A DNA stretch of 64,000 nucleotides. Source: Candidatus Moraniibacteriota bacterium (GTDB lineage Bacteria > Patescibacteriota > Minisyncoccia > Moranbacterales > UBA1568). Positions within the stretch are counted from its first letter, which is position 1, and every line of letters starts with the position of its first letter. The translations under genes were made by a program, and so were the position numbers. Below, in pieces: positions 9,707 to 47,808 of this stretch. The stretch lies in contig JBAQEZ010000002.1 of assembly GCA_049287005.1 (NCBI GenBank), forward strand, positions 19,268 to 83,267, in the 5' to 3' direction. The notes beneath the pieces were generated by a model. That model saw only the letters and a program-made list of their open reading frames with translations, ran no database searches and was not told the DNA's origin.

Positions 9707-10756
9707 ATGGCTCTCAAAGTCGGCATCGTCGGATTGCCCAACGTCGGAAAATCGACTCTTTTCAAGGCGCTCACGCGGAAAGCGGTAGACATCAACAATT
9801 ATCCGTTCTGTACTATTGAACCCAATGTCGGCATCGTCGAGGTACCCGATGAACGCCTGGCGAAACTGGCGATACTTTCCGGAACCAAGAAAATCATCCC
9901 GGCAGTGATCGAATTCGTTGATATCGCCGGTTTGGTGAAGGGGGCAAGCGTTGGGGAGGGGCTGGGCAATAAATTTCTCGCCAATATCCGCGAGGTGGAC
10001 GCTATCGTGGAAGTGGTGCGCATTTTCGAGAACCCGGATATCATTCATGTCCACAATCGCGTGGAGCCGGCAGAGGATATCGAGATTATCAACACGGAAC
10101 TTGTTTTGGCCGATATGGAAACGGTTGCCAAGCGTAAACTGAAAACCATCAAAGAGGCGCGTGCCGGGAAGAAAGAAGCTTTGGCCGAAATGGCGGTGCT
10201 CGACGGGATCGAGACAGAGCTGCACGCCGGACGTCTGGCCTACGATGCCGTGCAAAAGCTTTCCGCTGAAGAAAAAAGGATCGCGCGAGAATTGCAGCTC
10301 CTCACCGCCAAGCCGTTTTTGTATGTATACAATGTGTCCGATATCGACCGCGCCCTGAGTCCGGAACTGGAAAGCCGGCCGCACGTGAAACTGGATGTCA
10401 AAATTGAGGAAGAGTTGCTAGAAATGTCAGTCGCAGAAATACAGGAGATGGAGTTGGAGTCTCATATCGGAGATTTGGCGAAAAAGGCCTACGCGCTCCT
10501 GGGACTCATGACATATTTCACGACCGGGGTAGAGGAGACGCGCGCCTGGACCATTCCCCAAGGCTCGACCGCACCGCAAGCGGGTGCTGCCATTCATGGT
10601 GATTTTGAAGAAAAGTTCATCCGAGCCGAAATTATCCATTGGATCAAGTTGCTGGAGGCTGGCTCGTGGAGCGCCGCGCGTGAGAGCGGTTCGCTCCGTC
10701 TCGAAGGCAAAGACTATATCGTACAAGACGGAGATGTCATCGTGTTCAAGATCTAG
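9707..10756 (+). CDS. ychF: ribosome-binding ATPase YchF (Obg-like GTPase family)
   Basis: [15 protein letters not shown]-loop, TGS-like C-terminal domain. Start trimmed to ATG 9707 (MALKVGIVG…); the track ORF begins at an upstream GTG. Confidence 0.85.
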
Positions 10757-10770
10757 CGTTGCGAGCGGGG

Positions 10771-10799
10771 TTGACACTCGTTTTTTGGCAATCTATAAT
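10771..10799 (+). promoter_or_regulatory. perfect sigma70 consensus promoter TTGACA-17 bp-TATAAT upstream of groEL
   Basis: Exact hexamers and spacer read from the sequence, about 115 nt upstream of the groEL ATG. Confidence 0.55.
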
Positions 10800-10802
10800 A
10801 GA

Positions 10803-10811
10803 GAGTGCTAA
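10803..10811 (+). promoter_or_regulatory. CIRCE-like half-site GAGTGCTAA just downstream of the -10; the left arm is degenerate (TTGACACTC overlaps the -35) and the spacing is non-canonical (23 instead of 9)
   Basis: Matches the right arm of the HrcA operator consensus TTAGCACTC-N9-GAGTGCTAA. A partner CACTC lies upstream. Confidence 0.3.
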
Positions 10812-10908
10812 TAGGGGGAATAGTTAAATGGTTAAATGGTGAAATTGTTCGATAGTTTCATTGTTATGTATTCTGTAACAATGGAACAATAAAACAATGG
10901 AGCAATAA

Positions 10909-12564
<1,656 letters not shown>

Positions 12565-39895: not shown

Positions 39896-40153
39896 ATGAA
39901 GGCATTTACAGACCAAGTGCTCTCGGTCGTGGCGCGGATCCCGCGCGGCAAGACGCTCAGCTATGCTCAGGTGGCGCGCCAGGCCGGCAGCCCGGGAGCG
40001 GCCCGCGCGGTCGGTTCCATCATGCGGAAAAACGTCGATCCCGCCATTCCCTGCCACCGGGTCATCCGGAGCGACGGCTCTTTGGGACAGTACAATCGCG
40101 GCGGTACGGCAGCCAAAGCCCGCATCCTCCGCGCCGAGGGCGCGCCCTGCTAG
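39896..40153 (+). CDS. ogt: methylated-DNA--protein-cysteine methyltransferase, stand-alone C-terminal (DNA-binding/active-site) domain, 85 aa
   Basis: PCHRVI active-site motif, HTH (…LSYAQVARQAG…) and RAVG… conserved block. Confidence 0.7.
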   Translation: MKAFTDQVLSVVARIPRGKTLSYAQVARQAGSPGAARAVGSIMRKNVDPAIPCHRVIRSDGSLGQYNRGGTAAKARILRAEGAPC

Positions 40154-40741: not shown

Positions 40742-40770
40742 TTGACATGAACATAGAGTCATATTATTAT
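40742..40770 (+). promoter_or_regulatory. candidate promoter TTGACA-17 bp-TATTAT; the predicted transcription start coincides with the lexA ATG (possible leaderless mRNA)
   Basis: Hexamers read from the sequence. The first in-frame ATG of the LexA winged helix (40777) lies 7 nt after the -10. Confidence 0.35.
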
Positions 40771-40776
40771 TTAATT

Positions 40777-41418
40777 ATGAAAAAATATCTTACTCTAAAA
40801 CAAAAAACTGTTCTCGAATTGATTTACGACTCTATCCGTTCTTCCGGTTTCCCGCCCACCCTAGCCGATCTAAAAGAGGAATTAGGAGTGTCTTCCAATC
40901 AGTCGGTTTTGAATTTTTTAGAAATATTAGGGAAAAAGGAATGTATAAAACGTGAAGAAGGGCAGGCACGGAGCATTACAATTTTGCCTTTAGGATATAG
41001 AGAAATAGGGAAAGAACCTCTGGTGCGGGTAACTGGTTATTCAGCAGCTGGACCCTACATTGAATCTTTTACAGAAACTTTGAATTGGTTGCCGCTTGAT
41101 GGGCAGGTCTTGGAGAACGAACAAATAAACCAAGCGCGAGACAAGGTGTTTATTATCCAAGTTATTGGTGATTCTATGATTAATGTGGGAATTAATGATG
41201 GTGATAATTTATTAGTCAAAGAATCCAGGGAGTATAAAAGTGGAGATATTGTTCTCGCGCGAACTGATGATGGCGTAACGGTAAAGCGTTTTATTGCTGA
41301 GGGAGGCAAAAGATATTTAAAGCCGGAAAATCCTACCTATGAAAAAATGGTAATTATCCCCGGCGAAGTACAATTTCAGGGCAAGATAATTCTAAACCTT
41401 TCTAAAATAAACCAATAA
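40777..41418 (+). CDS. lexA: LexA-family repressor (LexA winged-HTH + S24 autopeptidase)
   Basis: N-terminal LexA_DNA_bind pattern (LTLKQKTVLELIYDSIRSSGFPPTLADLKEEL…), S24 catalytic Ser (GDSM) and Lys (VKRF). AT-rich codon usage like the rest of the island. Confidence 0.75.
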   Translation: MKKYLTLKQKTVLELIYDSIRSSGFPPTLADLKEELGVSSNQSVLNFLEILGKKECIKREEGQARSITILPLGYREIGKEPLVRVTGYSAAGPYIESFTETLNWLPLDGQVLENEQINQARDKVFIIQVIGDSMINVGINDGDNLLVKESREYKSGDIVLARTDDGVTVKRFIAEGGKRYLKPENPTYEKMVIIPGEVQFQGKIILNLSKINQ

Positions 41419-41419
41419 T

Positions 41420-43336
41420 ATGGTGGATCAAAAAAAGACCAGTGAAATTTTTGGAAAAATATTTCGGAATCCGGATATGCAATTTGGGCTTTCCGTATTC
41501 GAGGGAATTATTCCGGAACAAGTGCTGAACCTTTTCGAAAAAGAGGGTAAATATTATTTGGAATGTTTAAAAAGAAAGAAAAGTATTCAAGCCAAGCCGG
41601 AAGAAATTGTGCGTCAACTTATGATCCATAAACTGGTTAATTTTTACAAATACCCGCTTGATCGAATGGATGTGGAGGTGGATGTGCAATTCGGTCGAGA
41701 AATCGGATCTAAGAGAGCAGACATTGTTATTTATCGCGAAGATGGTCGGACGCCGTATCTCGTGGTGGAAGTCAAGAAACCAGATGTCAAAGACGGTCTG
41801 GGCCAGCTCAAAAGCTATGCCAATGCGACTGGCGCTCCGATTCTGATACTTACTGATGGGAAAATACAAAATAATATTTTGCGAACTGACCCGAATCTTT
41901 TTGAGGATCTCCCGGAAATTCCGAAGTTTAATGAAACCGTGGAAGACGTGCGATCCAAAAAACTGACTTACAATGATCTTGATGAGATTCCCAATTTGCA
42001 ACAGCTTGTTTATGATTTGCAGGAAGTTGTGCTGGCAAACAGCGGCGTGGACTCCTTCGATGAAATTTTCAAGTTGATCTATGCCAAATTGTATGATGAA
42101 ATTGAAACTCCCAGAAATGAAAACAGGAGGTTCAGGGTAATTGCGGGCGTAACCAACAAAGAGAATCTCAATAATATTCAGCGCCTTTTTGAAGATGCTA
42201 AAAATCAGTGGCGCGATGTGTTCAAGGCGAATGATGAGATAGAGATTCCGGAAAATACGATTGTACCGGCAGTGTCGCTTCTGCAAAAATATCGACTTTT
42301 TGGTTCCAACCTTCAAATTATTGACGACGCTTTTGAATATCTCATCAATTTGGATGCCAAGGGAGAAAAGGGGCAATATTTCACACCACGCCACGTGATC
42401 GATATGGCGGTAAAAATGTTTCACCCCACTTCCAAAGATTTTATTATTGACACCGCCGCGGGCAGTTGCGGATTTTTGCTCCACGCGATGCAATATGTTT
42501 GGAATAATGAGCTTAATAAAGAAAAGTGGGGAGAAAGTTATGGTGTGAAGCAGAAAGATTATGCGGAAAAACGTTTGTTTGGTATAGATTTTGATCCGCG
42601 TTCAGTAAAAATCGGAAAAGCGATGATGCTTATTGCCGGAGACGGGAAAACAAATGTTTCTTATGCCGACTCTCTTGATAGCGAAGTATGGAATGAGGAC
42701 GTGAAGGCGAGGTTCAGGCCGTTTCTTAGAAATTTTAAAGACCATGAAGAAAATAGAAGAAATCAGGAAAAGATGGCTGATTTTAATTTTGATATCGTAC
42801 TTACTAATCCGCCGTTTGCTGGAGAGAAAAAAGGCGTGATTCTCAATCGGTATGATCTTGGGTTCAAGTGGGACAAAGATTTTCAAAAAACATCCAAACA
42901 TCAAAACAAAGTTTCACGCGATGTACTTTTTATCGAACGGGATTTGAATTTCTTGAAGCCAGGCGGGCGAATGGCCATTGTTTTGCCGCAAGGAGTTTTG
43001 AATAATACGCAGATGGAGTATGTCCGCAAGTTTGTCATGAATAAAGCAAAAATTTTGGCGGTGGTGGGGCTTCACGGAAATACTTTCAAACCGCACACGG
43101 GCACAAAAACATCCGTTTTGTTTTTGCAAAAATGGGGTGGTGAAGCTGGCGAGCCACAAGTGGATTACCCGATTTTTATGGCTGTATCCAAAAAGGGCGG
43201 CAAAGATACTTCTGGCGAATATGTTTATAGAAAAGATAGCGAGGGGAATGTGATGTATGACGATTGGGGGAAAAAAATCATTGACCATGATCTAGATGAA
43301 ATCGCGGAGGAGTTTTTGAATTTTATGAAAAAATAA
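41420..43336 (+). CDS. restriction-modification protein: N-terminal PD-(D/E)xK/HSDR_N-like nuclease domain fused to gamma-class N6-adenine DNA methyltransferase (BcgI-A-like, or HsdM with N-terminal nuclease-like domain)
   Basis: Residues about 95-150 (RADIVIYREDGRTPYLVVEVKKPD…ILILTDGK) match the D…EVK nuclease core. Motif I (IIDTAAGSCGFLL) precedes motif IV (NPPF). 638 aa. Starts 1 bp after the lexA stop. Confidence 0.75.
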   Translation: MVDQKKTSEIFGKIFRNPDMQFGLSVFEGIIPEQVLNLFEKEGKYYLECLKRKKSIQAKPEEIVRQLMIHKLVNFYKYPLDRMDVEVDVQFGREIGSKRADIVIYREDGRTPYLVVEVKKPDVKDGLGQLKSYANATGAPILILTDGKIQNNILRTDPNLFEDLPEIPKFNETVEDVRSKKLTYNDLDEIPNLQQLVYDLQEVVLANSGVDSFDEIFKLIYAKLYDEIETPRNENRRFRVIAGVTNKENLNNIQRLFEDAKNQWRDVFKANDEIEIPENTIVPAVSLLQKYRLFGSNLQIIDDAFEYLINLDAKGEKGQYFTPRHVIDMAVKMFHPTSKDFIIDTAAGSCGFLLHAMQYVWNNELNKEKWGESYGVKQKDYAEKRLFGIDFDPRSVKIGKAMMLIAGDGKTNVSYADSLDSEVWNEDVKARFRPFLRNFKDHEENRRNQEKMADFNFDIVLTNPPFAGEKKGVILNRYDLGFKWDKDFQKTSKHQNKVSRDVLFIERDLNFLKPGGRMAIVLPQGVLNNTQMEYVRKFVMNKAKILAVVGLHGNTFKPHTGTKTSVLFLQKWGGEAGEPQVDYPIFMAVSKKGGKDTSGEYVYRKDSEGNVMYDDWGKKIIDHDLDEIAEEFLNFMKK

Positions 43337-43349
43337 TTATTAAAATCAT

Positions 43350-43943
43350 ATGTTTAATCAAAGTAAAGACGGAATAAAGAGTGAAAAGATAATTTATATT
43401 TTTATTGATGCTTCAAATCTTTGGCAAGCACAGAAAGCTAAGGGGAAACTTTTTGATTACGAGAAGCTTAGAAATTTTTTGAAAAGCAAGTTTGAAGGAT
43501 CAGAAATAAAAGTTTTTTACTATACTGCATATCCTGCTGATGGGACGAGAAGTTACAGTACTGATGGGAGACATAAATTTTATACTTTTCTAAAGAAAGG
43601 GCTAGGTTTTGTTGTTAGAAAAAAGGAGTTAAAACGTATATCAGTAATTACTGACGAAGGACAAGCTATTGAGGAAAAGGGAAATATGGACGTGGAAATG
43701 ACCATTGATGTTATACACTATATGAAAAAATATGGTGTAGCTATTTTGTTCACAGGTGATTCAGACTTTTTAGCACTAGTGACTTATTTAAGAAACGGCG
43801 GTAAAAAGGTTTATATTTTTTCATCGGAAAATAATGTTTCTAGAGAGTTAAAAACTGGAGGGGATGGATACTTTGATGTGCTGAAAATCAAAGAAGACAT
43901 CTGGGGCAAGGAGTTAAAATATAGGTCTGAAAAAGCCGAATAA
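43350..43943 (+). CDS. NYN-domain (LabA/PIN-like) putative ribonuclease
   Basis: IFIDASNL, NMDVEMTIDVI and LFTGDSDFLALV acidic motifs of NYN/PIN-like RNases. 13 bp after the M gene stop. Confidence 0.7.
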   Translation: MFNQSKDGIKSEKIIYIFIDASNLWQAQKAKGKLFDYEKLRNFLKSKFEGSEIKVFYYTAYPADGTRSYSTDGRHKFYTFLKKGLGFVVRKKELKRISVITDEGQAIEEKGNMDVEMTIDVIHYMKKYGVAILFTGDSDFLALVTYLRNGGKKVYIFSSENNVSRELKTGGDGYFDVLKIKEDIWGKELKYRSEKAE

Positions 43944-43947
43944 AAAC

Positions 43948-43973
43948 AACCCTCCTCGCGGAGGGTTGCTCTT
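43948..43973 (+). terminator. weak terminator-like hairpin (AACCCTCC-tcgc-GGAGGGTT) with a poor U-tract
   Basis: 8-bp stem read from the sequence. Confidence 0.3.
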
Positions 43974-44097
43974 GGATGTAATACCCTTTCAGTTATGGCT
44001 AACCGAAAGACATTACAAATATAGCAGATTATAATGGTTTGTCAAGGGGTTTACGCTTTCATCAACTAATACACTTATTATTTATATAAATAACAAT

Positions 44098-44451
44098 ATG
44101 GAAAATCAAGACCAGGACAAACTGATGAGACTATATACGAGATTGAGTGCTCTTAAAAATAATTTATCAAAAGATCATGGTATTTTGGACACTTTTGTCA
44201 AAGAATATTACACAATCGTTAATGAGCTAGTCGAGCTAACAGGTTTAAATTTAGACGAATTTAAAATTCCAATGTCTGAGGTTAAACCATATCTAATTGG
44301 TAGAGACTATGATGGACAAAAGACTTATACGGAAGAAATATTTTGTAACGGTTCATTATTTTTTAGTAAATTTGATGCCTTGATGACATATTTTCAAATA
44401 AAATATTTATCAAAAGAAAATATGAAAATTGGCTTTAATACCAAAGAGTAA
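44098..44451 (+). CDS. hypothetical protein (117 aa), immediately upstream of hsdS (3-bp gap)
   Basis: Intact ORF with island-like AT-rich codon usage. No recognisable motif. Confidence 0.4.
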   Translation: MENQDQDKLMRLYTRLSALKNNLSKDHGILDTFVKEYYTIVNELVELTGLNLDEFKIPMSEVKPYLIGRDYDGQKTYTEEIFCNGSLFFSKFDALMTYFQIKYLSKENMKIGFNTKE

Positions 44452-44454
44452 TTT

Positions 44455-45816
44455 ATGAATTTTTCAATAATTCAAAAATCTCAACTCGAAGGCGCTTCGC
44501 GGCTTGATGCTGAATATTATCAGCCGGAGTTTCTAATGTTTGTAAACAATTTAAAGGGGTTTGAATTGCAATTATTGGAAGAAATATCTTCAAAGATAGA
44601 TGTTGGTTTTGTGTCTTCTATGGTAAGACATTTTTGCAATAATGGGGTACCGTTGCTAAGAACACAAAATGTTGATGAGTTTGTTACAGATTTTGAAAAC
44701 GGTATTGTTTATATTGACGAAAAGTTTCATAAACAATTAAAAAAGAGCCAAGTTTATCCCGGGTATGTTTTATTGGCGAGAAGCGGGTCAATTGGCAACG
44801 CGAGTGTTGTAACGGAAAATAATCCGATTGCAAATTCTGCAGATATTATTTTGATAAAACCAAAAGAAAACATCTTGCCAGAGTATTTGGCAGCCTTTTT
44901 AAATTCAAAATACGGTAGGTTTCAGATTGAGAGAGGATCAAGCGGGGGTCTTCAGGGGCATATGAATTTATTTAGTCTCGAAAAAATAATCCTTCCTGTT
45001 GTAAGTATTGATATCCAACAGACGATTAGAATGATAGTTTTGCATGGTCTAGATGCATTCGAAAATTCAAAATTATTATATCAGCAAGCCGAAAATTTAC
45101 TTTTAGAAGCATTGGGATTAAAGGGTTTTGATAATGAGGAAAAATTATCATCAATTGTGAATCTTTCTGAAATAGAGTCAGCTTGTCGTATAGATGCTGA
45201 ATATTATCAGCCAAAGTATAAAATCATTGAAGATAAAGTTAAAAATTATAATGTGCATAAATTAGGTGATTTGGTTTCAATGAAAAAAGGGATTGAAGTC
45301 GGGGCGGAAAAATATCAAGAAGAGGGAAAAGTTTTTATTCGGGTGAGCAGTATGACAAAATTTGGAATTGAGGAGAGTGATCAAAAATACCTGAGCGATA
45401 AATTGTATGAAAAATTGAAAGATGACTTTGAACCAAAAAAAGGTGAAATTTTACTGACCAAGGATGCAACTCCGGGGATTGCTTTTGTTTTGAAAAAAGA
45501 TATTCAAGGGATCGTGTCAGGTGGCACTCTTCGGTTGAAATTGAAAAATGTAGGAGTTGAGCCTGAATATTTGGCACTTTGTCTAAATTCCATTATTGGG
45601 CAAATGCAAGCCGAGCGAGATGCTGGCGGATCAGTCATCGCCCACTGGAAACCGGAACAAATTAAAAATGTTCTTATCCCGATTTTATCCAAGGAAATAC
45701 AACAAAAAATTGCTGATTTTGTTCGACAATCTCACGAAGCACGAAAAAAAGCAAAGGAATTGCTTGAGGAGGCAAAAAGAAAAGTTGAAGAAATGATTGA
45801 GAAAGGGGGTGAATAA
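44455..45816 (+). CDS. hsdS: restriction-modification specificity subunit (HsdS/BcgI-B-like) with two target-recognition domains
   Basis: Duplicated conserved segments (…RLDAEYYQP… and …RIDAEYYQPKY…) flanking two variable TRDs. C-terminal coiled-coil. Confidence 0.85.
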   Translation: MNFSIIQKSQLEGASRLDAEYYQPEFLMFVNNLKGFELQLLEEISSKIDVGFVSSMVRHFCNNGVPLLRTQNVDEFVTDFENGIVYIDEKFHKQLKKSQVYPGYVLLARSGSIGNASVVTENNPIANSADIILIKPKENILPEYLAAFLNSKYGRFQIERGSSGGLQGHMNLFSLEKIILPVVSIDIQQTIRMIVLHGLDAFENSKLLYQQAENLLLEALGLKGFDNEEKLSSIVNLSEIESACRIDAEYYQPKYKIIEDKVKNYNVHKLGDLVSMKKGIEVGAEKYQEEGKVFIRVSSMTKFGIEESDQKYLSDKLYEKLKDDFEPKKGEILLTKDATPGIAFVLKKDIQGIVSGGTLRLKLKNVGVEPEYLALCLNSIIGQMQAERDAGGSVIAHWKPEQIKNVLIPILSKEIQQKIADFVRQSHEARKKAKELLEEAKRKVEEMIEKGGE

Positions 45817-45817
45817 T

Positions 45818-46024
45818 ATGGCAAAATACAATCGGAATTCAGGGAAGCCGTGGACAGGGAAAGAGGTTGAGAAACTTGAAAAACTAGCGAAAGGAAATAC
45901 ACCTACGCGAGTTATCGGTCTTGATCTCGGTCGTACGGAAAATGCAGTTCGAAAGAAAGCATCACAAAATGACATTACTTTAAATCCGCCAAATCAAAAA
46001 CCGTATAATCGGAGGAAAAAATAA
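45818..46024 (+). CDS. small Myb/SANT-like HTH protein (68 aa)
   Basis: KPWTGKEVEKLEKLAKGNTPTRVIGLDLGRTENAVRKKAS fits the W-x2-EE-x-L…G…I…GR-x3-A tri-helical pattern. Same domain as the helicase C-terminus at 29.1 kb. ATG 1 nt after the hsdS stop. Confidence 0.4.
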   Translation: MAKYNRNSGKPWTGKEVEKLEKLAKGNTPTRVIGLDLGRTENAVRKKASQNDITLNPPNQKPYNRRKK

Positions 46025-46215
46025 AGTCATAAATAAAACCAGTGTGTCGATTCAGCTTTTCCGCTCTCCCTGTGAGATATCCGGAAAACAGCATAACGGC
46101 GTGACATTTTTCCAGCTCGAAAGAGTTGGTTTTTGTTTGGGTGTATAATTGGAAAAGAAAAGGGGTCAGGTACCTTTTTGAAAATTACGTAACCGGTTAC
46201 GTACAAGATGAAGCT

Positions 46216-46479
46216 ATGTATTACCTCTATATCCTCAAGTGTGCGGATGGGACGCTGTATACAGGGATCACGGTTGATCTGAAGCGGAGGATCACGGAGC
46301 ATAATAGTTTGGCGCTCGGGGCGAAATATACCCGGGGGCGCCGGCCAGTCATTCTTGTTTTTTCTCAGAAATTTCGCACCCGTTCCACCGCCTCCCAGGT
46401 CGAATCCCGCATCAAGAAACTCTCTCGCATTCAGAAGCTTGAGCTCATTGCCTCTGTTTATGAGGCCAAGAAAGTATAA
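46216..46479 (+). CDS. GIY-YIG nuclease family protein (short stand-alone, YhbQ/UPF0213-like), copy 1
   Basis: YYLYILKCADGTLYTGITVDLKRRITEHN… contains the GIY…YTG and RR…EHN motifs. Start trimmed to ATG 46216. Confidence 0.7.
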   Translation: MYYLYILKCADGTLYTGITVDLKRRITEHNSLALGAKYTRGRRPVILVFSQKFRTRSTASQVESRIKKLSRIQKLELIASVYEAKKV

Positions 46480-47422: not shown

Positions 47423-47503
47423 ATGCTCCTGATAGTCGTCATAGTGGTCGCGGTCCTCATCTTCGGAGCGGCTTTCATCGCGGTCTCCGAGAAGAAAAAA
47501 TGA
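47423..47503 (+). CDS. possible 26-aa hydrophobic micro-protein (MLLIVVIVVAVLIFGAAFIAVSEKKK)
   Basis: ATG…TGA ORF whose stop overlaps (ATGA) the start of the next ORF. A single TM-like segment. Below the size cut-off of the ORF track. Confidence 0.2.
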   Translation: MLLIVVIVVAVLIFGAAFIAVSEKKK

Positions 47504-47547
47504 AGAAAAAAATAAAAAAAATAGAAAAGATGGAAAGGATGGGAAAA

Positions 47548-47808
47548 ATGAAAAAAAATCTGTATGCTCTCTATATGCTCAGATGCGCGGATGGGACCCT
47601 GTATACGGGGATCACGGTCGATGTGCGCAGGCGGATCAGCGAGCATAACTCTTCGTCGCTGGGGGCGAAATATACCCGCGGGCGGCGACCGGTGAAACTG
47701 GTTTTTTCCAAGTTGTTTCGCAATCGCTCCGAGGCATCCGGAGAAGAGGCTCGCATCAAAAAATTGTCTCGCGCAGAGAAGCTCGCCATGATCAAGAAAA
47801 AAATATGA
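47548..47808 (+). CDS. GIY-YIG nuclease family protein, copy 2 (paralog of 46216..46479)
   Basis: LYALYMLRCADGTLYTGITVDVRRRISEHN…: same motifs. About 75-80 % nucleotide identity to copy 1 over about 230 bp. The track ORF starts at 47500 with a Lys-rich leader. Confidence 0.65.
   Translation: MKKNLYALYMLRCADGTLYTGITVDVRRRISEHNSSSLGAKYTRGRRPVKLVFSKLFRNRSEASGEEARIKKLSRAEKLAMIKKKI

Follow-up and report, generated by a model that had tools for sequence, protein, structure and literature searches.

The 64,000-nucleotide stretch of Candidatus Moraniibacteriota bacterium DNA analysed here (the window; assembly GCA_049287005.1, contig JBAQEZ010000002.1, positions 19,268 to 83,267 of the forward strand) carries, within an island of low guanine-plus-cytosine (GC) content, a gene for a protein that we call RM and, downstream of it, a gene for an HsdS-like specificity subunit, S. 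We consider it likely that these two proteins together form an ATP-independent, type IIB-like restriction-modification (R-M) enzyme of the BcgI/BsaXI kind. As expected of a type IIB system, the endonuclease and the methyltransferase are united in one polypeptide of 638 amino acids (aa), and an HsdS-like module with two target recognition domains (TRDs) is encoded in the same operon. Type IIB-like pairs of RM and S are already known as a kind of enzyme, and the family to which this RM belongs is widespread and under-annotated.

The original prediction, made from the letters of the DNA, had described RM as an N-terminal PD-(D/E)xK / HSDR_N-like module followed by a gamma-class N6-adenine methyltransferase with motif I ahead of motif IV, and both halves of that description hold. 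In Pfam, residues 60-168 match HSDR_N_2 with E=3.1e-24 and 85.6 bits, the cutoff being 25 bits, and residues 300-571 match N6_Mtase with E=2e-34; Eco57I is the only further Pfam match, and HsdM_N is not among them. Within the N-terminal domain, the strings RADIVIY, VVEVKKP and TDGK are found at residues 99, 115 and 145, respectively, while motif I of the methyltransferase, DTAAGSCGF, is found at residue 344 (42449-42475 of the window) and NPPF at residue 463 (42806-42817), so that motif I indeed precedes motif IV. The protein can thus be divided into a PD-(D/E)xK nuclease (residues ~38-160), a helical connector (~190-315) and a gamma-class N6-adenine methyltransferase (~320-600), to which the AlphaFold2 model (mean predicted local distance difference test score 81.3, predicted template modelling score 0.74) adds a short C-terminal helix at residues 625-637. 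In the same model the nuclease core has the order alpha-beta-beta-beta-alpha-beta, with a helix at residues 60-75, strands at 83-90, 97-105 and 112-118, a second helix at 127-137 and a last strand at 141-145. In addition, the PADLOC model PDLC03034 matches RM over its full length (2.6e-185).

Among proteins of solved structure, BsaXI, a type IIB enzyme built from a 916-aa RM subunit and an S subunit (PDB 8w0p, 8w2p, 8w2q), is the best match to RM by sequence, by profile and by predicted fold, at an identity of ~20%. A phmmer search of all PDB sequences with RM returned the BsaXI RM subunit as the best match (8w0p, E=2.7e-24), and the alignment covers both the N-terminal domain and the methyltransferase. 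A profile built from 41 family members matched BsaXI at 1.3e-37, as against ~1e-18 for the HsdM subunits of type I systems, and in a Foldseek comparison of the RM model with the PDB, BsaXI came first (E=7.4e-28) with 667 aligned columns, whereas HsdM proteins aligned over only ~430-515. These comparisons favour the type IIB-like over the type I assignment, as the original prediction had it. The likeness spans nuclease, helical connector and methyltransferase, and it includes all four nuclease residues that have been defined by mutation, since BsaXI no longer cleaved when E73, D90, E105 or K107 of its N-terminal domain was changed to alanine (PMC11997821) and the HMMER alignment pairs these residues with E86, D101, E117 and K119 of RM (codons at 41675-41677, 41720-41722, 41768-41770 and 41774-41776). 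The catalytic residues for which the original prediction had proposed an alignment of the N-terminal domain are therefore present, and they are invariant in all 110 close homologs (59-92% identity). Of 90 representatives of clusters formed at 50% identity, all 90 keep D101, 85 keep E117, 82 keep K119 and 71 keep the whole tetrad.

The S protein shows the layout TRD1-CR1-TRD2-CR2 (CR, conserved region), with Pfam Methylase_S matching in two stretches, PADLOC Specificity_I matching residues 17-449 (3.4e-60) and the S subunit of PDB entry 1yf2 matching at 7.6e-8. Its gene starts 1,118 nucleotides (nt) after the RM stop codon, which agrees with the two-TRD HsdS anticipated 1.1 kb downstream; the description of the locus has to be corrected in that this gap holds two genes, one for a protein with an NYN domain and one for a 117-aa open reading frame (ORF). 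For comparison we inspected 6 loci from a large assembly collection, 80 from species-representative genomes (of at least 595 that match) and 3 plasmid loci, whose common gene order is an optional LexA-like gene, RM, 0 to 3 variable genes and S. Of 86 loci, 75 have an S gene downstream of RM, and the exceptions are mostly contigs that end near RM. Where RM is 84-89% identical between loci, S identity ranges from 36% to 84%, and this strong divergence of S on a conserved RM would indicate TRD diversification, as expected if specificity diversifies. Two contigs (L117 and L118) have identical LexA-like proteins and same-sized RM and DUF3800 cargo genes, but differ in the S region, which encodes a 453-aa S in one and, in the other, a 326-aa and a 110-aa ORF without a Methylase_S match; this difference suggests that S has been replaced or disrupted within a population.

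By analogy with BcgI and BsaXI, two copies of RM would assemble on one S into an (RM)2S complex, the design of BsaXI with its separate two-TRD S subunit, and the two RM subunits would be placed on the two TRD/conserved-helix halves of S, whose two TRDs would read a bipartite DNA sequence. On host DNA, each methyltransferase domain, supplied with S-adenosylmethionine, would methylate one adenine at N6 per half-site, whereas unmethylated foreign DNA would be cut at fixed distances outside the site by the N-terminal PD-(D/E)xK domain with its residues E86, D101, E117 and K119. If the enzyme follows the type IIB definition, this cleavage would take place on both sides of the site. Discrimination between self and non-self would hence depend on methylation, and neither an HsdR motor nor ATP would be involved in the action of RM and S.

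The only relative with in vivo evidence of restriction is the pair encoded by plasmid D of Anabaena (Trichormus) variabilis ATCC 29413. Its HsdRM (917 aa, positions 60-2813 of L087) is 41% identical to RM over residues 7-572 and 580-625, and the two loci have in common the nuclease residues (in plasmid D, the E in LEVSV, the D in AADVIVY and the ExK in VECKKP) as well as an adjoining S gene, which directly follows hsdRM. A. variabilis strains that lack plasmid D or hsdRM are much better conjugation recipients, the exconjugants of the wild type were all double recombinants, as expected of linearised DNA, and conjugation fell drastically when hsdRMS was expressed in Nostoc PCC 7120 and Nostoc M131 (10.1101/2025.10.21.683720). 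The authors of that study propose a type IIB system and put the PD..(D/E)xK motif at residues 444-452, within the methyltransferase domain (10.1101/2025.10.21.683720); in our alignment with RM and BsaXI, by contrast, the nuclease residues fall within the N-terminal HSDR_N_2 domain. Unlike RM, the plasmid D protein has ~220 extra residues inserted between the last two strands of its methyltransferase, and its locus differs from the window in being plasmid-borne and in having neither a LexA-like gene nor cargo genes.

Relatives of RM are numerous. An exhaustive HMMER search gave 3,309 cluster representatives at E<=1e-10; a large protein set contains at least 7,600 relatives, species-representative genomes contain at least 595 loci, and the hosts include phyla of the candidate phyla radiation (CPR), Cyanobacteria, Pasteurellaceae, Neisseria, Treponema, Firmicutes and archaea. 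The nearest representatives outside the close clade (45-50% identity) include proteins of 1,050-1,210 aa, several of which carry HSDR_N_2, N6_Mtase and Methylase_S in a single chain according to Pfam, and a gene on plasmid pAQ6 of PCC 7002 likewise encodes a single R-M-S chain of 1,179 aa. Since it contains RM+S pairs as well as single-chain relatives, the family has both known type IIB layouts. In every annotated record that we examined, the RM gene is without a restriction annotation; the plasmid records name it 'N-6 DNA methylase', and the large protein set uses 'N-6 DNA methylase', 'type I restriction enzyme M protein' and similar methyltransferase names. One homolog, on an Absconditabacterales contig (L002, RM at 10001-11908), comes out as fragmented ORFs when read with translation table 11, and translation of the fetched gene does not give back the query; both would be consistent with the alternative genetic code of that lineage.

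The original prediction had also noted that no SF2 translocase or HsdR ORF is present in the island, and this was borne out in the island and in the 64-kb window alike. No helicase domain was detected in the island ORFs by Pfam, NCBIfam or PADLOC, and EcoKI HsdR, Mfd and RecG, used as phmmer queries on the window translated in six frames, gave no match. The ORFs of the window that exceed 700 aa encode only topoisomerase I and a P-type ATPase, and its remaining large ORFs belong to housekeeping genes. The EcoKI HsdR query matched none of the related loci either. Within 10 kb on either side of RM, ~85 loci hold 44 ORFs of at least 650 aa, none of which is an HsdR, and only 3 of the 44 match ResIII, namely Mfd, RecG and a third that is probably PriA. 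The ten nearest of these large neighbours were scanned singly as HsdR candidates and were rejected as housekeeping genes (they include Mfd, RecG, MetH, tRNA synthetases, ClpB, PNPase, AcrB and an AddA-like helicase), and a summary of family counts for the rest contained no HsdR-specific family.

The island in which RM and S lie extends over ~40.7-46.1 kb of the window and has a GC content of 32-41%, compared with ~52% in the flanks. It contains six genes, all on the + strand (LexA-like, RM, NYN, the 117-aa ORF, S and a small basic ORF), and its features are as follows.

40742..40770, + strand: operon promoter, TTGACA-17 nt-TATTAT, the best promoter match of the island (11/12 positions).
40777..41418, + strand: LexA-like repressor, 213 aa (Pfam LexA_DNA_bind and Peptidase_S24, NCBIfam lexA).
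41420..43336, + strand: RM subunit, 638 aa (Pfam HSDR_N_2 and N6_Mtase, PADLOC PDLC03034).
43350..43943, + strand: cargo gene 1, an NYN (LabA-like) nuclease-domain protein of 197 aa (Pfam NYN).
44098..44451, + strand: cargo gene 2, a 117-aa ORF with no family match, ending 3 nt before the S start codon.
44455..45816, + strand: specificity subunit, HsdS-like, 453 aa (two Pfam Methylase_S matches, PADLOC Specificity_I).
45818..46024, + strand: small basic ORF of 68 aa (ATG 45818) or 75 aa (TTG 45797).
46112..46129, + strand: intrinsic-terminator-like hairpin with a T-run.

The hairpin is likely the 3' end of the operon and the edge of the low-GC island, and downstream of it the GC content is back at the host level. 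A possible internal promoter lies at 44007-44035. The small basic ORF is preceded by AAGGGGGTG; it has no family match in Pfam, NCBIfam or PADLOC, and it is unlike the ORFs that follow S in L001 and L003 and is not conserved in related cassettes. A search for direct repeats or att sites flanking the island found nothing convincing. The low-GC cassette with its R-M genes is horizontally acquired, and it moves between CPR classes at 84-92% identity. An origin from phages is not supported, because viral contigs hold only relatives of at most ~60% identity, mostly 42-48%.

Some features of the immediate flanks may be mentioned here. Just 3' of the island, at 46126-46479 and 47500-47808, lie two paralogous small GIY-YIG domain genes, 74% identical to each other over 223 nt at the nucleotide level. 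In L001 and L003, too, the cassette is followed by similar genes, but as they were seen in 3 loci only, we rejected the GIY-YIG genes as a general mobility factor. Just 5' of the island, adjoining a glyoxalase-family gene, an 85-aa ORF (39896-40153) consists only of the DNA-binding domain of an O6-methylguanine-DNA methyltransferase with the PCHR active-site motif.

The first gene of the cassette encodes a LexA-like repressor. The program-called start at 40747 falls inside the promoter, and we took ATG 40777 as the start. The protein matches Pfam LexA_DNA_bind (1.3e-13) and Peptidase_S24 (1.8e-24) as well as NCBIfam lexA (134.9 bits against a cutoff of 110.95), and it has a winged-helix domain, an Ala91-Gly92 cleavage site, Ser133 (in GDSM) and Lys170 (in VKR). 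The spacing of 37 residues from serine to lysine is the same as that between S119 and K156 of E. coli LexA, and from its sequence the repressor is predicted to be competent for autocleavage. Several features make the LexA-like gene part of the cassette. In the window, and often also in related loci, its end and the start codon of RM are 1 nt apart; its GC content of 37% is like that of the island; and its identity tracks that of RM, with 62-78% where RM is 84-89% identical and ~40-50% where RM is ~47% identical. It is directly upstream of RM in 46 of 86 loci, two LexA homologs picked regardless of RM are also followed by RM, cargo and S, and many other LexA homologs share a contig with listed RM homologs.

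The -10 box of the promoter ends 6 nt before ATG 40777, which implies a leaderless mRNA. In related loci, the promoter consensus upstream of the LexA-like gene is TTGACA-17-TATAAT, with a palindrome, (C)CGACTA-N2-TAGTCG(G), in the spacer. This palindrome occurs with at most 3 mismatches in 32 of 44 loci, as compared with 6% of random 190-nt windows, and it ends ~15 nt before the start codon, a distance that is constant across loci. The copy in the window, TGAACATAGAGTCA (TGAACA-TA-GAGTCA; 40748-40761), lies in the promoter spacer as well and is partly degenerate. In one locus (L007) the palindrome is altered symmetrically in both half-sites, to AGACCA-AA-TGGTCT. We take the palindrome to be a putative autoregulatory operator, to which the LexA-like protein would bind to repress the cassette promoter; a single leaderless promoter probably drives the cassette and is autorepressed by the cassette's own LexA-like protein.

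Between RM and S lies a slot of variable content. In the window, its first gene encodes the NYN protein (Pfam NYN 4.2e-22, PADLOC NYN 2.2e-11, PDB 2qip 6e-4), in which the aspartate motifs IDASN (residue 19) and GDSDF (residue 136) are intact. Of the 86 fetched loci, only 4 have an NYN gene at this position, to which L119-L121 can be added. A small ORF of ~100-117 aa always comes after the NYN gene. In some loci the NYN protein is better conserved than the adjacent RM (71% vs 52% in L013, 59% vs 47% in L049), which suggests that cargo moves between cassettes. The 117-aa ORF of the window has no significant match in Pfam, NCBIfam or PADLOC, and in the one pair compared it shows no similarity to the 108-aa ORF at the same position in L001. 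The slots of related loci hold 59 proteins that fall into ~45 BLAST clusters, and in many loci the slot is empty. Families found there are NYN, DUF3800, DUF4145, RhuM, LPD3, an RnlA-like domain and AAA_15 / SMC-like ATPases, and many slot proteins belong to no family; the gene between RM and S in L002 encodes a 788-aa SMC_N/AAA ATPase. Cargo is present in 30 of 35 loci with a LexA-like gene and in 9 of 35 without (Fisher p=7e-7, the loci not being phylogenetically independent). Because the slot is hypervariable, we regard the NYN gene and the 117-aa ORF of the window as cargo, which in the proposed mechanism would be exchangeable and not part of the core, and we rejected the NYN, 117-aa and 75-aa ORFs as core parts; the latter two have no counterpart in the closest cassettes. 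Accessory genes inside the operon are also familiar from type I loci, PrrC being an example.

For RM and its homologs of more than 50% identity, our reading of the locus as a type IIB-like enzyme draws on sequence, a structure model and gene context, and several further points weigh against it. RM lacks the C-terminal 'paddle', two residues of which (D816 and E823) BsaXI also needs for cleavage (PMC11997821). It lacks the 'knob' (residues 626-742 of BsaXI) as well, with residues 572-580 of RM spanning the place of a 100-220-residue insertion in BsaXI and the Anabaena homolog, and it ends in a short terminal helix instead, so that the geometry of cleavage is not simply transferable from BsaXI. 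The E-D-E-K tetrad is incomplete in 19 of the 90 distant cluster representatives, and some members of the family may thus be methyltransferases only. Moreover, the operator copy of the window departs from the consensus at 3 of 12 positions. The published group of type IIB enzymes termed 'RM, Type I-like, C-terminal tail' offers a closer comparison in size, with BcgI (637 aa, the size that the original prediction had given for the A subunit), BaeI (626 aa) and SdeOSI (630 aa) among its members (PMC11997821, Table S2). Including Hso63250II and HpyUM032XIII, the subunits of this group measure 626-680 aa, compared with 638 aa for RM. In this comparison of size and published architecture class they have, like RM, an N-terminal PD..ExK nuclease, an EcoKI-like gamma m6A methyltransferase and a lone C-terminal helix. 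Enzymes of this group work with a separate HsdS-like subunit in an A2B complex and have no ATPase. BcgI-B, with ~341 aa, is shorter than the 453-aa S of the window. For BcgI itself the A2B composition has been reported (PMC3592470), and enzymes of BcgI size without knob or paddle are active nucleases (PMC11997821).

The incomplete tetrads and the missing paddle would also be accounted for if M and S acted solely as a methyltransferase, orphan or regulatory and epigenetic, with a PD-(D/E)xK domain that binds DNA or does not restrict. The names given to the family in all sources would fit this explanation, as would the label MTase_I of the best PADLOC model for RM. However, the invariance of the tetrad in all close homologs is unexpected for a decayed nuclease, the homologous A. 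variabilis pair restricts incoming DNA, the BcgI-size enzymes cleave without knob or paddle, and the diversification of S and the mobility of the cassette fit a role in defence; we therefore regard a methyltransferase-only function as unlikely. Still less probable, in our assessment, is that RM and S serve as the sensor and modification module of a larger system, MADS-like or new, with the NYN and 117-aa proteins as effectors. The best NCBIfam matches of RM and S are indeed MADS MAD2 (1.6e-91) and MAD5 (1.4e-53), which means that homologous M/S pairs can act inside larger systems and in this respect counts against our reading; an NYN nuclease with intact aspartate motifs is present inside the operon, and NYN recurs after RM in several loci of divergent RM clades. 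Yet the scores stay at less than half of the cutoffs (307.5 vs 720 for RM, 182.4 vs 400 for S), and among the island ORFs NCBIfam and PADLOC, the latter with mad2/mad5-like hits only, detected no other mad component, for which reasons we rejected membership in MADS. Furthermore, the slot is hypervariable and often empty, so that NYN is not required by RM and S, and the 117-aa ORF is not conserved even beside NYN.

A classical ATP-dependent type I system, in which an HsdR encoded elsewhere in the genome would dock onto M2S, is the least probable of the explanations, and we consider it highly improbable. EcoKI-type systems share with the window the HsdS architecture, a gamma-class methyltransferase core with the sequence and fold of an HsdM-like protein, and the expectation of a bipartite target; S has the full size of an HsdS, and the search of the source genome for HsdR covered 64 kb, which leaves room for an hsdR elsewhere and is again a point against the type IIB-like reading. 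Type I systems differ from the window, however, in having an HsdR motor, none of which was found at the window or within 10 kb at ~85 related loci from many phyla, plasmids included, and in that RM has a nuclease fused to the methyltransferase where no HsdM_N match is found by Pfam, its N-terminal region being the nuclease domain. With a nuclease already in RM, another one brought by HsdR would be redundant. There are, moreover, relatives in which R, M and S form a single chain, and a conserved dependence on a partner encoded in trans is hardly to be expected of a cassette that travels between CPR classes. We thus prefer the two-protein, type IIB-like R-M enzyme, for which low GC content and the divergence of S at a near-constant RM are signs of an active, mobile defence gene.

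Beyond the enzyme itself, we tentatively raise the possibility, which we hold to be less probable than not, that the whole cassette is a damage-responsive, modular defence platform specific to CPR/Patescibacteria, in which an autocleavable LexA-type repressor replaces the usual C-protein and RM and S carry an exchangeable slot. In such a platform, the LexA-like repressor would hold the leaderless operon of RM, cargo and S off through the palindromic operator in the promoter spacer, and the operon would be released upon activation of RecA, for example by DNA breaks that arise from restriction or phage infection. RM and S would then be the stable carrier, while the slot genes (NYN, DUF3800, DUF4145, RhuM, AAA ATPases and others) would be rapidly exchanged. 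We found nothing relevant on LexA-controlled R-M systems in the literature searched, where the LexA-type control and the hypervariable cargo slot are likewise not described, and these two features might be new to the specialist.

The type IIB enzymes are useful reagents, as in 2b-RAD, and the divergent S subunits on a near-constant RM scaffold represent a source of new specificities. With neither knob nor paddle, the compact RM+S clade can serve as a natural experiment on the structural elements that type IIB cleavage really requires. In addition, its LexA-type control and its cargo slot make the locus look like a regulated, modular defence cassette, from which new accessory defence genes could be obtained. 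As the LexA-like protein of the cassette passes the NCBIfam lexA cutoff, 'LexA' annotations in CPR may often refer to cassette regulators, and if the damage-responsive reading is true, many CPR 'LexA' genes would be regulators of cassettes and not the SOS repressor of the host. Finally, thousands of database entries named 'N-6 DNA methylase' or 'type I M protein' are probably complete, motor-less restriction enzymes, and re-reading them as such changes the counts of defence repertoires and of barriers to gene transfer, especially in the small-genome, uncultivated CPR/Patescibacteria.

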